A DNA stretch of 64,000 nt, from NCBI GenBank assembly GCA_028716745.1, contig JAQUPE010000001.1, positions 30,203 through 94,202 of the forward strand, in the 5' to 3' direction. Origin of the DNA: Minisyncoccota bacterium (GTDB lineage: Bacteria; Patescibacteriota; Minisyncoccia; UBA6257; 02-FULL-45-10c). The position numbers and the translations under genes are program-made. Below the pieces are notes generated by a model that ran no database searches, was not told where the DNA came from, and saw only the letters and a program-made list of their open reading frames with translations. Below, in pieces: positions 1-64,000 of this stretch; position 1 is the first letter of the stretch, and each line of letters opens with the position of its first letter.

Positions 1-2
1 CA

Positions 3-812
3 AATAAAGTTTCTGAAAAATTAGCCAAAATAAGTTCTAATTATTATATTCCTCCGAAAAATGACTGGGGTTATTATATTAATAGTTGTGTTGGCGGCGG
101 TATTTCTTTGCCGACAAAAGAAAATATACTTCCGAGCGCCTACAAGGCTTATTCTATATTTCAAGATAGTAAGACAACTGCGATTGCTACTATAAATGCT
201 ATTGCCGGATCTTCCGCAACAGCAATTGGAAATATTAAAAATTCACGATATCAGTGCGGTACAGATTGGGGTGGCGCGCCAAGGTATTGCAATTGTCCTA
301 ATAATTTTACTGTTTTGCCGTCCAGCAGCAGCTTGCAGCATACATATAGTATTAATTCTTGGGACAATCCGGGATCTGTTTCTTCTTCTAATACCGGCAA
401 TTCATTTATAGATGTTAATGTCGACTATAACCAGGAATATGCTTACATTATAAAAGTTCCGGCCACTGATCGCGATGGTTATATAACTACCTATTCAGAT
501 CCTATTACTGGAGAAACCCCAAATGTTCCTCCTGCGCCTCCGGCTTTGCCTTCCTGCAGTTTTTCTGCCGATCCATCAATGGTTCCGGCTCACTCAGCTT
601 CCAAAATCACTTGGTCTTGCCAAGAATCCAATACTTGCGATTTATATGAAGGCACAAGCAAAGTAGATTCCGGAATAAGCGGCGATTATACGGCAAACAT
701 AGGAACTACTTCTAAAATATATAAGCTTTCTTGTTCGGGAAACGGGGGATTAAAAGATTTTTCTCTTACAATAAAGGTTTCTTCTATCCAATATAAAGAA
801 GTAGCGCCGTAA
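3..812 (+). CDS. secreted Cys-rich Fn3/Ig-like surface protein, 5' partial (paralog of 2684..4441)
   Basis: Reading frame is open back to the window start. C-terminal ~260 aa align with the C-terminus of the 585-aa protein (shared YxCGTDWxG..KYCNCP, VPATDRxGxTTTYSDPIT, SCxFSAxPxxVPAHSxSKIxWxCQxSxxCxLYEGTS, C-terminal YxEVAP). Confidence 0.6.
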   Translation, partial: NKVSEKLAKISSNYYIPPKNDWGYYINSCVGGGISLPTKENILPSAYKAYSIFQDSKTTAIATINAIAGSSATAIGNIKNSRYQCGTDWGGAPRYCNCPNNFTVLPSSSSLQHTYSINSWDNPGSVSSSNTGNSFIDVNVDYNQEYAYIIKVPATDRDGYITTYSDPITGETPNVPPAPPALPSCSFSADPSMVPAHSASKITWSCQESNTCDLYEGTSKVDSGISGDYTANIGTTSKIYKLSCSGNGGLKDFSLTIKVSSIQYKEVAP

Positions 813-832
813 ATTTTAATTAAAACAAAAAT

Positions 833-1408
833 ATGAAAAAGAAAATTATATTAATTATTGCGGTGTTAATCGTTGTTGTAATATTCGCGGCTTTGTACTG
901 CGTAACTCTTAGGGTAAAAGTTATTCCGGTGGAAGCTTCGGCGCTGGAATTAAATCCCGAAGTTATTCAGTTGGATAATTTTTCGGTTAATATTCCAAAG
1001 GGATGGGTAAAAGAGGATTCCGGTACCGATTTAATGATGATTAATCCGGTGGGAATAAAATTATCGGATAATGAAAGCGCTATAGAATATTTTTCGGTAA
1101 AAAAAGAGCAGTTGGCGGGAGTAGCTATAAATAAATATATCGAGAATTTCAAAAGTTTTTTGGACAGAGTAACCGTAAAAAGCGAATTTACGCATCCGGA
1201 AAATGGGGATTTTATAAATACTTTGCCGGCTTTTTACATTGAATCGGATACCGAGCTTAAGGGGATAAGCTTCAAGAAGCTTAATGTGATGATAGTCGAG
1301 GATGCCGGAAATATTTGGCAGTTAAATTACAGCGTTTCTGCAGAAAATTGGAGCAAATATAAAGCTGCTTACTATAAATCGGTTAGCCAGTTTGCATTAA
1401 AACAGTAG
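833..1408 (+). CDS. small N-terminally membrane-anchored protein (paralog of 4450..5100)
   Basis: N-terminal hydrophobic helix; shared NPVG..., FKKxNV..., NxWxLNY motifs with the 216-aa protein. Confidence 0.55.
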   Translation: MKKKIILIIAVLIVVVIFAALYCVTLRVKVIPVEASALELNPEVIQLDNFSVNIPKGWVKEDSGTDLMMINPVGIKLSDNESAIEYFSVKKEQLAGVAINKYIENFKSFLDRVTVKSEFTHPENGDFINTLPAFYIESDTELKGISFKKLNVMIVEDAGNIWQLNYSVSAENWSKYKAAYYKSVSQFALKQ

Positions 1409-1454
1409 GGTTTTTTGGGCGAAAACACGGCTCATTACCGTGTTTTTGTTTACC

Positions 1455-1483
1455 TTGACTTTTCCTCTAAAATGTGCTATATT
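1455..1483 (+). promoter_or_regulatory. sigma70-like promoter TTGACT-N17-TATATT
   Basis: ttgact(1455-1460) + 17-nt spacer + tatatt(1478-1483), ~70 nt upstream of the 1556 ATG. Confidence 0.45.
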
Positions 1484-1555
1484 AAAAGTAGTAAAAATAA
1501 GCTTTTTTGACATAAGAAGTAATATAAGCTGAAAAATCTTGAAGGAGGCGTAGCC

Positions 1556-2602
1556 ATGAAGAAAATCTTTTTGGCAGTCGCAGTCGTTTCAATGGTCTAC
1601 GGATTGGCTATCGCCGACGGAATGGAAAACATTTCCGGCATAGAACAGTCCAGCCAGGTTGTTGTCGATACCGCCGCTACGGCAGGTGTCGGCATCAGCT
1701 CACCGGCAGTTTCTGGAGTTGAGAAATCGACTTCCACGGAACTGGATGGTCGCAGACAGAGAAGGCTGGAAAGAATCCAGCTGGAAGAGTCTGAGACGAA
1801 ATCCGGACACAGGTGGCAGGTTTCTGTTTCCAAGGAATCCGATTATGGATTTGGGAAAACTAACCTGGAATCACTGGATCATTTTGTGCAGATTATCAAC
1901 AATAGTTTAGTTACTGTTGATATTCCTTTCATTAATTTTCACTATGAATTTGAGGAGCACGATCCTGTTTTGTGTCCGCGCCTTAGAAACATCCAGACAG
2001 AGAACCGAAAGTTGGCGATTGGATGGAGAAATGGAGTTGTAGAAATTGGAGTGTCTGCTGGCCAGTGGTCTGCAAATACTGATGGCTTTCATCAGGATTT
2101 TTACGGACACATTGGAAATCCAGCAGTAATATTTTTTACAACCACCGTTGATATGTCGCCGATTTACGTCTCTGTAACATCTACCATGCTTGATTTAAAA
2201 TTCAACCTTAACGCTCCCAGTAATGACAAGAGGCGGACATGGTGTCCGTTTATTGACCTGCAGGCGGGGACGTTAAAGCTTGATATTTCGGGCAAGGTAA
2301 AGTTCTGGGGAGATGAGTACACGAGCTCAAATCCAGATTATCCTTATCAGGGATATCCTATTATTCCGGTGCAGTACGAATTCAGCTCTGGCGATCCGGT
2401 TATAGCAGGAAAGGTTACGCTGGGGATGGAAGCAAGAATTATTTGCGGCTTGAAAGTCGGCGCAAATATCAGCTTCCGCAGCGGAAACGCCTATTACTGG
2501 CTGACGCGTACCGGAGACGACGGAAAGGTTGTAAGGAAGAAGATAGAAAAGGGGCTCGAGGATGGGGCGGTTGTTTCAACCTCCATTTCTTACGAGTTCT
2601 AG
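1556..2602 (+). CDS. secreted beta-rich protein with signal peptide and C-terminal Phe (OMP-like signature), higher G+C
   Basis: MKKIFLAVAVVSMVYGLAIADG signal peptide; ends ...SISYEF; strong SD ggaggcgtagccATG; G+C visibly higher than flanks. Confidence 0.5.
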   Translation: MKKIFLAVAVVSMVYGLAIADGMENISGIEQSSQVVVDTAATAGVGISSPAVSGVEKSTSTELDGRRQRRLERIQLEESETKSGHRWQVSVSKESDYGFGKTNLESLDHFVQIINNSLVTVDIPFINFHYEFEEHDPVLCPRLRNIQTENRKLAIGWRNGVVEIGVSAGQWSANTDGFHQDFYGHIGNPAVIFFTTTVDMSPIYVSVTSTMLDLKFNLNAPSNDKRRTWCPFIDLQAGTLKLDISGKVKFWGDEYTSSNPDYPYQGYPIIPVQYEFSSGDPVIAGKVTLGMEARIICGLKVGANISFRSGNAYYWLTRTGDDGKVVRKKIEKGLEDGAVVSTSISYEF

Positions 2603-2614
2603 ATCGTATCATTG

Positions 2615-62652: not shown

Positions 62653-62659
62653 TGACATT

Positions 62660-62998
62660 TTGGCTGAAAGAATATTAACTAAGGGCAGCAGTTTAAAATT
62701 TCTTTACGAGGAGAAACAAATGATTAGACTGGTGATTTATTTTTTAATCATCGCGGTTATTTGGGCAATAGTTGTTCGGAAGGGAGTAATAGCTAAGTGG
62801 GGCACCTTCAGGATCCTTATGTGGACGGTAGGCGCCGGAGTCGGACCTGTTCTTTGGGGGTTTAAAAGAAAAGCGGCGGTATATGCCGTTGTATTTATAC
62901 TCCTACAAATTCTGGGCCAGATTTATCTAAAGATAAAGAAAAATAGGCGGAAAAAAATTACTTACGAATGGCTAAAAAGAGAAGCGGAATTTAAATAA
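62660..62998 (+). CDS. small membrane protein, hypothetical
   Basis: 112-aa ORF with three hydrophobic helices. Confidence 0.4.
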   Translation: MAERILTKGSSLKFLYEEKQMIRLVIYFLIIAVIWAIVVRKGVIAKWGTFRILMWTVGAGVGPVLWGFKRKAAVYAVVFILLQILGQIYLKIKKNRRKKITYEWLKREAEFK

Positions 62999-63013
62999 GG
63001 AGCGACCCAAATC

Positions 63014-63044
63014 AAAAAACACCCACCTGGGTGTTTTATTTTAT
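63014..63044. terminator. bidirectional terminator aaaaaacacccacctgggtgttttatttt (serves convergent efp)
   Basis: hairpin acaccc/gggtgt flanked by A-run and T-run. Confidence 0.6.
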
Positions 63045-63062
63045 TTATAGTAGTTTGCCGAA

Positions 63063-63635
63063 TTATTTAGCTTTTTCCACTCTCTCAACGTATTCTCCGG
63101 TCTGAGTATTTACGCGGATAATATCATCGTTATTTACAAAAAGCGGAACGGCCACCTCGGCTCCATTTTCCATAACAGCTATCTTGGAACCGCCTTGGGC
63201 TGTGTTGCCGCGTTCTCCGGGAGGAGTTTCTTTAACTTTCAAATCAACTTTTATAGGAGGAATAATATCTAAAATTTGTTCATCTAATTTTACAGCTGTA
63301 ACTTCGGAGTTTGATTTTAAAAACTTTCCGGCTGGACCTATCTTTGCTTCCGGTAAAGTGAAGCGATTTTTTGGATTTCCTTTCTCGCAGAACCAAAATT
63401 CTCCTCTATTATTGTAGAGATAAATAATGGGGGTTTTTTCCACATCAATATCTTCTAATTTTTCATTTTGATGGAAGGCGCGCTCAAGAACTTGGCCGGT
63501 AATAAGGTTTTTTAGCCTGGTTTTAGCCACTGGCTTCCTTTGTTGCATGCGTAAAAACTCGTATTCAAGCACTTGATACGGCTGGCCCTCAAACTTGAAC
63601 ATTGTTCCGATTTTTAACTCGTTATAACTCAACAT
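63063..63635 (-). CDS. efp: elongation factor P
   Basis: MLSYNELKIGTMFKFEGQPYQVLEYEF...; KOW/OB domains; 190 aa. Confidence 0.9.
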   Translation of the reverse strand: MLSYNELKIGTMFKFEGQPYQVLEYEFLRMQQRKPVAKTRLKNLITGQVLERAFHQNEKLEDIDVEKTPIIYLYNNRGEFWFCEKGNPKNRFTLPEAKIGPAGKFLKSNSEVTAVKLDEQILDIIPPIKVDLKVKETPPGERGNTAQGGSKIAVMENGAEVAVPLFVNNDDIIRVNTQTGEYVERVEKAK

Positions 63636-63709
63636 GTTTAAGAGTTTATCTTATTTAATTGGAAAAATCAACTTTAAAATGTTAATATATAAGTCATAAG
63701 TCATTTATT

Positions 63710-64000
63710 ATGCATCTTAAACGTCTGGAATTATTAGGATTTAAATCATTTGCGCAAAAGACCGTCCTGGATTTTCCGGGCGGTATTGCCGGAATCGTCG
63801 GGCCTAATGGGTCCGGAAAATCTAACGTTATCGATTCGGTTCGCTGGATTTTGGGCGAAAGAGAGGCTAAAAACTTGAGAGGCGTTAAGGCAGAGGATCT
63901 TATTTTCGCCGGTACGCAGAAAAGACCGAGAATGGGCATGGCGCAGGTGTCGCTTACTTTTGATAACTCATCCGGATTTTTTCCGGTGGATTATAACGAA
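63710..64000 (+). CDS. smc: chromosome partition protein SMC, N-terminal fragment (continues beyond window)
   Basis: MHLKRLELLGFKSFAQKTVLDFPGGIAGIVGPNGSGKSNVIDSVRWILGE Walker A/SMC N-terminus; the minus-strand track ORF 63694..63939 is its antisense shadow. Confidence 0.85.
   Translation, partial: MHLKRLELLGFKSFAQKTVLDFPGGIAGIVGPNGSGKSNVIDSVRWILGEREAKNLRGVKAEDLIFAGTQKRPRMGMAQVSLTFDNSSGFFPVDYNE

Follow-up and report, generated by a model that had tools for sequence, protein, structure and literature searches.

The 64-kb stretch of DNA analysed here, referred to as the window (contig JAQUPE010000001.1, 39.5% G+C), carries genes for LigA, GatCA, PheST, the ribosomal proteins S16, S2, L10, L7/L12 and L21, EF-Ts, MraZ, RsmH, a penicillin-binding protein, a Mur ligase, CorA, SecDF, EF-P, RecR, DnaB, CysS, DnaJ, DnaK, GrpE and HrcA, with ten tRNA genes dispersed among them. 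Interspersed with these genes are short, G+C-richer units with strong Shine-Dalgarno (SD) sites, which we call islets and which are the subject of this report. The window DnaB is 78% identical to that of a Candidatus Paceibacterota metagenome-assembled genome (MAG) and 71% identical to that of a Harrisonbacteria MAG, and all related loci (n = 80) come from Patescibacteria-type MAGs. The host is a MAG of the Paceibacteria (Patescibacteria, or candidate phyla radiation, CPR). CPR bacteria are uncultured, and little is known of the signals that govern expression of their genes. The genome was sampled through these 64 kb of the host and two pieces of a sister genome.

Genes were called mechanically and their starts were then curated, giving a set of 78 genes. 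For each gene we determined the G+C content at third codon positions (GC3) and the best duplex between the region from -22 to -3 and the 3' tail of 16S rRNA. A gene was regarded as SD-led if this duplex reached -8.5 kcal/mol or lower with the canonical tail, which may not be the host's own. Promoters, SDs, terminators and leaderless starts were all predicted from the sequence.

By this definition 16 of the 78 genes are SD-led, compared with 1.7 ± 1.1 for shuffled upstream regions; among random genomic 22-mers, 2.6% reach the same threshold. GC3 exceeds 0.45 in 13 genes (0.465-0.665, mean 0.558), and all 13 are SD-led, whereas the 62 SD-less genes, termed native below, have a GC3 of at most 0.444 (mean 0.364; Fisher p = 2.5e-12 for the association). 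No native gene in the window forms a duplex of -9 kcal/mol or lower. Three SD-led genes have a native-like GC3 (24166-24591, 24705-24953 and 37981-38286).

At the third positions of the islets G and C are both increased, and the codons CTG/CTC, AAC, TAC, TTC, ATC and CGG are enriched. A leave-one-out classifier based on codon usage assigned 71 of 75 genes correctly, and the ratio K/(K+R) falls from 0.73 in native proteins to 0.62 in islet proteins. The tetranucleotide signature of the islet pool correlates with that of the native pool at r = 0.50, which is below the value for every one of 200 random native subsets (0.72 ± 0.045, minimum 0.58). When the islet pool is split in two, its halves resemble each other in tetranucleotides no more than either resembles native genes, and no paralogy between islets was found by BLASTP at E <= 0.01. 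The G+C anomaly is limited to the coding sequences (CDSs), which have 47% G+C compared with 26% in the region from -100 to -16.

An earlier note on this DNA had singled out ten G+C-richer segments, and all of them are present where it had placed them. Its association of strong SDs with higher G+C holds for every GC3-rich gene, and the codon-usage and tetranucleotide comparisons that it had proposed both separate islets from native genes. Some details needed correction. The native genes, described as having weaker SDs, have none at all and instead carry leaderless-type promoters. The TTG starts were a product of the longest open reading frame (ORF) rule, the starts actually preceded by an SD being the ATG codons at 25523, 52955 and 61836, and the segment 44400-44891 holds no protein gene but a cluster of SD-led mini-ORFs.

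The islets are monocistronic units, and their elements follow each other in the same order: the terminator of the preceding unit, a -35/-10 promoter, a leader, the SD, the CDS and a terminator. The promoters match the consensus TTGACA-16/17-TAnnnT, with a -35 box that is often exactly TTGACA, and the -10 box lies 31-84 nt before the ATG, leaving an AT-rich leader of 30-85 nt. The SD is GGAGG, often extended to GGAGGTGA, and is located 4-12 nt before the ATG. Every islet is followed on its 3' side by a G+C-rich hairpin with a T-run, a predicted intrinsic terminator, so that the hairpin terminators already reported around individual islets turn out to be general.

The architecture of the native genes is different. 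Twelve of them have an extended -10 box (TGnTAnnWT) whose end is 6, 7 or 9 nt from the ATG, sharply concentrated at 6-7 nt (10 genes), and in none of the islets was such a box found 6-9 nt before the start. In bacterial promoters this spacing puts the transcription start at or beside the start codon, and therefore the native operon-first genes are probably transcribed as leaderless mRNA. An example is the box TGaTATAAT (2668-2686, + strand), which ends 7 nt before the ATG of gene 2684-4441; this gene has no SD, and its mRNA is predicted to be leaderless. Operon-internal native genes have no SD either. The genes for ribosomal proteins, EF-Ts, EF-P, DnaK and GrpE, all without SD, have a GC3 of 0.32-0.41.

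Two further features of the native DNA may be recorded. A 33-nt module is present in four copies (10951-10983, 11964-11996, 12442-12474 and 30162-30194). In each copy a terminator hairpin with its T-run passes directly into an extended -10 box (..GGCGATTTTTTGtTAnnAT) that is only a few bases away from the following ATG, forming a compact terminator-plus-leaderless-promoter unit. The region 30204-32238 (+ strand) has an unusually low G+C content and is the opposite compositional outlier to the islets; its three genes, for a HATPase_c-like protein, a STAS-domain protein and one unknown protein, have GC3 values of 0.29, 0.26 and 0.18 and no SD.

Syntenic orthologues of four islets are present in the sister MAG JAQURY (GCA_028715395.1). 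With genes named by their first coordinate, the protein identities are 72% for asd (aspartate-semialdehyde dehydrogenase), 42-46% for 45625, 44-50% for 44892 and 37-40% for 1556. The orthologues have SDs and a GC3 at or above the local level, and the 1556 orthologue shares both its site and its SD with the window gene. Alignment of the leaders shows the -35 box and the SD as conserved blocks in otherwise diverged sequence, and therefore the expression signals of these islets appear to be under purifying selection. At four-fold degenerate sites, islets and native genes are equally diverged, with an identity of about 0.5 in each class. Since the orthologues are also syntenic, the four islets were already present in the common ancestor, and this orthology indicates that at least four islets predate the split from the sister and are old, not recent, acquisitions. 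The islet proteins have evolved faster, with 37-50% identity to the sister compared with 63-82% for most native neighbours.

More distant relatives are without the islets, and universal conservation in the lineage, which would have spoken against acquisition, is not seen among the related loci. Across 66 of these loci, SD-led genes make up 2.6-3.2% of all genes, and 75% of them have no homologue in other loci, compared with 32% of the rest (p = 4e-7). The difference in GC3 is marked in the window genome, weaker in the sister and family-specific elsewhere. The 45625 family has nine members, and those that carry a label are from Patescibacteria; its genes in the window, the sister (L002) and L090 are SD-led, the one in L090 being the only SD-led gene of a ribosomal-protein locus. 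The SD-led state thus appears to be a property of the gene family. One Patescibacteria contig (L084) carries at 4302-5624 (+ strand) a gene whose 440-aa product combines a TFIIB zinc ribbon with TFIIB repeats and resembles an archaeal/eukaryotic-type transcription factor; this gene has a perfect SD (aaaggaggtgaaaaa) and is among the few SD-led genes of that locus.

The islet at 38419-39522 (+ strand; 54% G+C, GC3 0.67, SD aaaggagagggg, terminator 39542-39561) carries asd. Its product contains the Pfam domains Semialdhyde_dh and Semialdhyde_dhC (E = 2e-22 and 2.3e-40). It matches PDB chains 1nwc, 1mb4 and 1brm of the H. influenzae/V. cholerae/E. coli group at E = 1e-137 to 1e-141, and the shorter Asd chains of 331-366 residues (2yv3, 8juo, 3tz6 and 2gyy), which we take to be of the Gram-positive/archaeal type, at E = 1e-14 to 1e-23. 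The motifs GGNCTVS and RCHSQA, presumably those of the catalytic Cys and the catalytic His, are identical in the alignment to 1nwc. The gene is predicted to be an intact asd of the Gram-negative type. Other genes of the lysine/diaminopimelate/threonine pathway were not found within the window.

In 32 of 59 related loci, no more than 140 nt separate the genes for RecR and L21. The insertion found at this junction in the window measures 1.76 kb and consists of the SD-led gene 37981-38286 (+ strand, GC3 0.42), which encodes a Cys-rich ORFan of 101 aa, and asd. In another locus (L006) the same junction contains a different SD-led gene, for a purple-acid-phosphatase-like protein. Overall, 21% of the genes inserted between RecR and L21 have an SD duplex of -8 kcal/mol or lower, compared with 5% of all genes (p = 1.5e-4). 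The L21-37981-asd junction is reproduced at 100% identity by an independent Logan assembly. The asd SD duplex reaches -8.7 kcal/mol or lower in the window, the sister (L002) and L084, and is weak (-5.6) in L082, a fourth asd-bearing contig of Patescibacteria type. A 36-nt palindrome, TGTATAnTATATG-N10-CATATAnTATACA, is present in one copy between asd and the 3' end of recR (39603-39639) and in two copies in the long region upstream of the L10 gene (28634-28670 and 28728-28764); it resembles an operator or a small repeat element.

The islet at 54685-55461 (+ strand; SD aaaggaggga, GC3 0.48) encodes a modular protein of 258 aa with the N-terminal module MGSLVKETPYSEITATLEVL. The protein has 31 weak relatives. 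The module, MG(S/N)L(V/I)KETPYSEITATLE (MGxLxKETPYSEITATLE), is common to many proteins with different C-terminal parts, in which no Pfam domain was found. The family is strongly SD-led in 23 of 25 metagenome contexts, one of them a 61% G+C contig of Gram-negative type, and its GC3 is above the local median in all 9 contigs with at least 4 other genes (mean +0.175), 8 of these contigs being independent. A structure prediction from a 9-sequence alignment gave a mean pLDDT (predicted local distance difference test) of 56, too low for searching by fold. A phage-like 46-kb contig (L087, JGI Ga0395661_000419) carries a relative of the C-terminal part without the N-terminal module, together with primase-polymerase/VapE-like, Acb2/Tad1-like, methylase and HNH genes and many small ORFs.

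The leader of 54685 contains a hairpin at 54630-54659 (+ strand) of the form GGC-GA(N)-[variable stem-loop]-(N)GA-GCC, with tandem G.A pairs. In most module-first genes this hairpin lies 19-27 nt upstream of the ATG, and in two genes 49-56 nt; it occurs in CPR-like and in non-CPR contigs (L091-L118), always ahead of a gene that begins with the module. In 16 sequences, 91% of the cells are paired compared with 68% in shuffles, and 34 cells are compensatory compared with 11 ± 3 (0 of 500 shuffles in both cases, the shuffles taking no account of relatedness among the 16 sequences). Slid controls gave 27-44% pairing. A covariance model of the hairpin has one match in the window (30.9 bits, E = 7.5e-7) and none at the other islets. 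In 1.32 Mb of unrelated Paceibacteria DNA it has only four marginal matches, and the two that were inspected have no SD or module gene downstream. With Rfam 15, a search of 54500-54850 was empty at E <= 1, and a search of the whole window gave no match at gathering score. We therefore regard 54630-54659 as a candidate new structured element of the 5' untranslated region (5'-UTR) that travels with the gene family. The SD and the following (G)ACCC..ATGGGG segment are conserved in the family as well. A hairpin CCC..AUG..GGG around the start codon is only suggestive, as its register varies and most of its pairs are invariant.

The leaders of 45625 and 53083 have features of their own. The gene 45625-46158 (- strand; SD gggaggtgaaaa, GC3 0.57) encodes a protein of 177 aa with a sub-threshold DUF218 match, and its promoter and leader (46159-46236, - strand) contain TTGACA-17-TATTTT and the motif CATCGAA..TTTACAACTTcATACAC. 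This 17-nt motif occurs otherwise only in the leader of 53083-53520 (- strand; SD gggggtgaaaaa, GC3 0.61), a gene for a helical ORFan of 145 aa, where TTGACA-17-TATTAT is followed by the second copy, TTTACAACTTaATACAC (53521-53599, - strand). Pairwise leader alignments compared with shuffles single out only this pair. A leader cassette common to the islets, which had been suspected from positions 46159 and 53521, is not supported by a motif present in 2 of 16 leaders. The SD of the 45625 leader, GGAGGTG, is able to base-pair with a CACCT that directly precedes the ATG (46159-46174, - strand), and the resulting hairpin, GAGGTGaaaaCACCTT, could possibly sequester the SD. The 53083 leader contains a weaker version of it.

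The remaining SD-led genes are distributed over the whole window. The gene 1556-2602 (+ strand; SD gaaggaggcg, GC3 0.49) encodes a secreted ORFan of 348 aa with a signal peptide, and among 1.84 billion representatives its product has one homologue (37% identity), in the sister MAG. On either side of it lies a copy of a paralogous two-gene module (108-1408 and 2684-5100; 54% and 41% protein identity), in which no Pfam domains were found. The sister keeps this order, with the 1556 orthologue followed by genes of 594 and 192 aa. The gene 5270-5995 (+ strand; SD aaaaggag, GC3 0.53, terminator 6041-6065) encodes a putative lipoprotein of 241 aa with the lipobox LSAC and no Pfam, PHROG or PADLOC match. 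Its upstream region (5205-5269, + strand) contains another strong SD-like site, gaggaggtgg, and after this a possible TTG mini-ORF of 8 codons, which may be an upstream ORF of the 5270 leader.

Two islets are adjacent at 14646-15788. The first (14646-15200, + strand; SD ggggaggg, GC3 0.59, terminator 15226-15246) encodes a 184-aa protein with a weak winged-helix (MarR/AbiEi-like) signal, and the second (15399-15788, + strand; SD aaaaggaggcgg, GC3 0.47) an ORFan of 129 aa. Between tRNA-Met and this pair lies a small GIY-YIG nuclease gene (14300-14563, + strand) with 29% G+C and a leaderless-type promoter; GIY-YIG genes are also found near the 54685 homologue in L086, and in L003. Three SD-led genes follow each other further downstream. 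The monocistronic gene 24166-24591 (+ strand) has a native-like GC3 of 0.31 and encodes a 141-aa protein with an N-terminal membrane helix. Gene 24705-24953 (+ strand; SD taggaggaaata, GC3 0.45, own terminator) encodes a small membrane protein of 82 aa. The islet 25056-25523 (- strand, starting at the ATG at 25523; SD aaaggaggga, GC3 0.65) encodes a protein of 155 aa and has the promoter TTGACA-16-TATAAT and a leader of 40 nt.

Directly after tRNA-Lys lies the cluster of mini-ORFs (44380-44760, + strand; terminator 44785-44808). It consists of three mini-ORFs with extended SDs of the GGAGGTGAT type, for Gly/Cys-rich GCCG peptides (MNKGRSFASDESGCCGHGG..., MKKSRGYHDDGGGCCGP), among them one of 31 aa and one of 17 aa. 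The sister keeps the cluster (L002, 6900-7330, - strand), including the identical 20-mer GGGAGGTGGTGTGATATATG. The roughly 500 nt from the cluster to the start of 44892 contain seven GGAGG sequences on the + strand. Gene 44892-45533 (+ strand; SD gaggaggtgaaat, GC3 0.59) encodes a zinc-ribbon protein of 213 aa. Gene 52254-52955 (- strand, starting at the ATG at 52955; SD acggaggtaat, GC3 0.52) encodes a helical ORFan of 233 aa. Two membrane proteins are encoded by 61836-62063 (+ strand, starting at the ATG at 61836; 75 aa, SD aaggggagga, GC3 0.53) and 62193-62606 (+ strand; 137 aa, SD taagggggaa, GC3 0.58).

None of the SD-led genes other than asd has a family at the Pfam threshold. The islet products include two weak or suspected winged-helix proteins, two helical proteins and four small membrane proteins. 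The earlier description of the products as mostly uncharacterised was apt: besides the one asd, they are ORFans or belong to small families restricted to Patescibacteria. A phage origin was considered and rejected, as IMG/VR returned nothing for the 44892 protein and the 54685 module, and a PHROGs scan of the islet proteins gave weak winged-helix and zinc-ribbon matches only. A defence-system origin was likewise rejected, as PADLOC gave one weak AbiEi-like winged-helix match.

Taken together, we consider it probable that this genome contains two expression architectures and that the 16 SD-led genes are acquired accessory units. Phage morons, known from the lambdoid-phage literature (Hendrix, Juhala), are autonomous transcription units inserted between phage genes. 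The SD-led genes may have entered the chromosome as moron-like autonomous units between native operons, or may have been rebuilt into such units there. A gene landing in an intergenic region, with its promoter at an arbitrary distance, would give a leadered mRNA, and in this organism a leadered mRNA would need a ribosome-recruiting signal, that is, an SD. The SD would be kept by selection because of this need, and a switch to the native leaderless mode would require a promoter placed exactly against the start codon. SDs are conserved between orthologues and within families, and therefore the ribosome of the lineage presumably still reads them.

The GC3-rich codons and the lower K/(K+R) ratio would be the residue of an origin in a G+C-richer gene pool. 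For asd this pool may ultimately have been a Gram-negative lineage, and for the other islets it may have been a Patescibacteria-associated mobile or accessory pool. The lack of likeness between the halves of the islet pool points to several sources. Of the piecemeal acquisition from higher-G+C donors that the earlier note had proposed, the accessory or foreign nature of the genes, the insertion at a junction and the several sources hold up; a donor can be named only loosely, and for asd alone.

Several observations weigh against this interpretation. Neither the 64-kb window nor the related loci contain a copy of the 16S rRNA, and a published survey detected the anti-SD motif in just 48% of Parcubacteria (PMC9297842). 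Donors cannot be named for 12 of the 13 GC3-rich islets, and those of the 12 that have homologues share them only with other Patescibacteria or with unlabelled metagenome contigs. Across the 66 related loci, SD-led genes were not found to be GC3-richer than their neighbours on average. The upstream regions of the islets are host-like at 26% G+C, and therefore the promoter and leader would have been either rebuilt in the host or ameliorated faster than the CDS. Moreover, compared with the sister, the window has a higher islet GC3 but a lower native GC3, a contrast that simple amelioration under one genome-wide bias does not predict and that hints at maintenance, or at differing amelioration rates in the two lineages.

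Maintenance would be expected if the SD-led genes were a translational regulon, with a codon usage held by selection rather than left over from a foreign source. A ribosome subpopulation or a factor exposing or hiding the anti-SD could act as the switch that turns the whole class on or off, as in Bacteroidia. This would fit the conservation of SD and -35 box between orthologues, and of the SD within families across distant genomes, as well as an islet GC3 that has not decayed to the host value and exceeds that of the sister. One leader that can hide its SD in a hairpin and another with a covarying structured element would also be in line with regulation, and two reports on Bacteroidia rpsU describe a special SD-led gene in an SD-blind lineage (PMC9976891, PMC13000453). 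However, the supposed members (asd, a lipoprotein, winged-helix proteins, membrane peptides and ORFans) lack functional coherence and are lineage-restricted insertions. The rise of both G3 and C3, including the normally rare CGG, resembles a compositional shift rather than a choice of optimal codons. We therefore regard a regulon as unlikely, and since it would be compatible with a foreign origin, it is no true alternative to acquisition.

One shared mobile vector, for instance an integron-like cassette array, an integrative element or a prophage, could also have scattered the islets through the chromosome as its remnants or its cargo; a shared vector had been suggested in the earlier note. 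The uniform architecture of the units, the 17-nt motif common to two leaders, the GIY-YIG gene adjoining one cluster and the relative of the 54685 C-terminal part on a phage-like contig would all be understandable in this way. Four of the nine islet clusters lie within 800 nt of a tRNA gene, but 2.8 would be expected by chance (P = 0.30). No integrase, transposase or recombinase turned up when essentially all window proteins were compared with Pfam, and flanking or cassette-associated repeats were not found. A VirD4-like gene (60265-61800) has native composition and homologues in relatives. Only one leader pair is above the null, no other islet has the structured leader of 54685, and the halves of the islet pool are no more alike than each is to native genes. 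IMG/VR contains no relatives of the 44892 protein or the 54685 N-terminal module, and PHROG and PADLOC matches are negligible. With no integrase, flanking repeats or common leader, the shared vector is unsupported, and we consider it very unlikely.

If the islets were highly expressed native genes, their promoters, SDs, terminators and C-ending codons could all reflect selection for expression. The consensus TTGACA promoters, the very strong SDs and the enriched NNC codons would fit this, and L7/L12 is slightly closer to the islet codon-usage centroid. Translational selection on codons is rejected, though, because the genes expected to be highly expressed (ribosomal proteins, EF-Ts, EF-P, DnaK and GrpE) have neither the codon usage of the islets nor an SD. 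G-ending and rare codons (CGG, CTG and ACG) are increased in the islets as well, and their products are fast-evolving ORFans. This explanation is highly improbable. An assembly or binning artefact, in which G+C-richer reads were chimerically inserted into a CPR contig, is conceivable as the window comes from a MAG, but its probability is negligible, given that the islets are embedded in host-like AT-rich promoter and terminator DNA with boundaries exactly at the CDS, that the Logan assembly independently yields the asd junction and that in a separate sister MAG these genes occupy identical sites.

Acquired units of this kind can be compared with several known systems. Like phage morons, the islets are single genes of deviant composition between genes that are adjacent in relatives, and consensus matches identify a promoter and a terminator of their own. 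Unlike morons, they lie between housekeeping operons of a cellular CPR chromosome and not in a prophage, their neighbours being L21, RecR-DnaB-CysS, DnaJ-DnaK-GrpE-HrcA, SecDF, LigA and GatCA. They are also set apart by SD-led initiation against a leaderless or SD-less background.

With genomic islands the islets share atypical G+C, codons and tetranucleotides, as documented above by GC3, codon classification and the tetranucleotide r, and also accessory content and patchy distribution. However, they measure only 0.2-1.8 kb each and have no integrase, no direct repeats and no significant link to tRNA genes. In addition, foreign genes are more often A+T-richer than the host, whereas the islets are G+C-richer, and they are old enough to be in the sister. 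Integron cassettes consist of a promoterless ORF with attC and depend on intI, whereas the islets have their own promoter and an ordinary terminator, with no shared 3' repeat and no integrase.

The native and the SD-led genes each have a counterpart in other bacteria. Native genes resemble those of the leaderless-rich Actinobacteria and Deinococcus-Thermus in having a -10 box at a fixed short distance and no SD, an example being the M. tuberculosis map of transcription start sites cited in PMC12641261. In the Paceibacteria window leaderless transcription is deduced from the DNA alone. To our knowledge, a contrast between leaderless genes and a compositionally distinct SD-led class is not part of the leaderless-mRNA literature.

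In Bacteroidia, as in the window, SDs are almost absent and a small conserved set of genes, such as rpsU and prfB, is strongly SD-led (PMC7797042, PMC9976891, PMC10798248, PMC13000453). In that lineage the SD-led genes are core translation genes with a part in autoregulation, and the anti-SD is sequestered, whereas the SD-led genes here are accessory insertions and the native mode includes leaderless initiation. None of the 16 has a ribosomal or translation-factor domain in Pfam. The SD-less native genes found here agree with a survey of Parcubacteria ribosomes (Tsurumaki et al., 2022, PMC9297842). This survey describes no minority of conserved, strongly SD-led genes, and their conservation in our loci argues for SD pairing in the lineage. 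In the literature searched we found no description of SD-led genes as an acquired class in CPR genomes, which is not proof of novelty.

The window offers a clean internal contrast and suggests a sequence criterion by which core and acquired genes could be told apart, namely leadered with a strong SD as opposed to leaderless or without an SD. A further implication is that a Parcubacteria-type ribosome apparently still uses SD pairing, even though almost none of the organism's own genes needs an SD. For gene calling in CPR MAGs, a single model of ribosome-binding sites would misplace the starts of one of the two classes. The 54685 leader adds a candidate 5'-UTR element tied to a widespread, uncharacterised family of modular proteins. 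Finally, as a tentative and rather doubtful extension, initiation in Paceibacteria, and perhaps in Patescibacteria, may be two-tiered, with inherited genes that are leaderless or SD-independent and SD/anti-SD pairing used essentially for acquired cassettes. If this were true, a strong SD would be a phylum-wide, long-lived mark of acquired genes, exemplified by asd, the TFIIB-like gene, the phosphatase and ORFan families that keep their SD and even a leader RNA structure, and the whole accessory gene set could be controlled through SD recognition.

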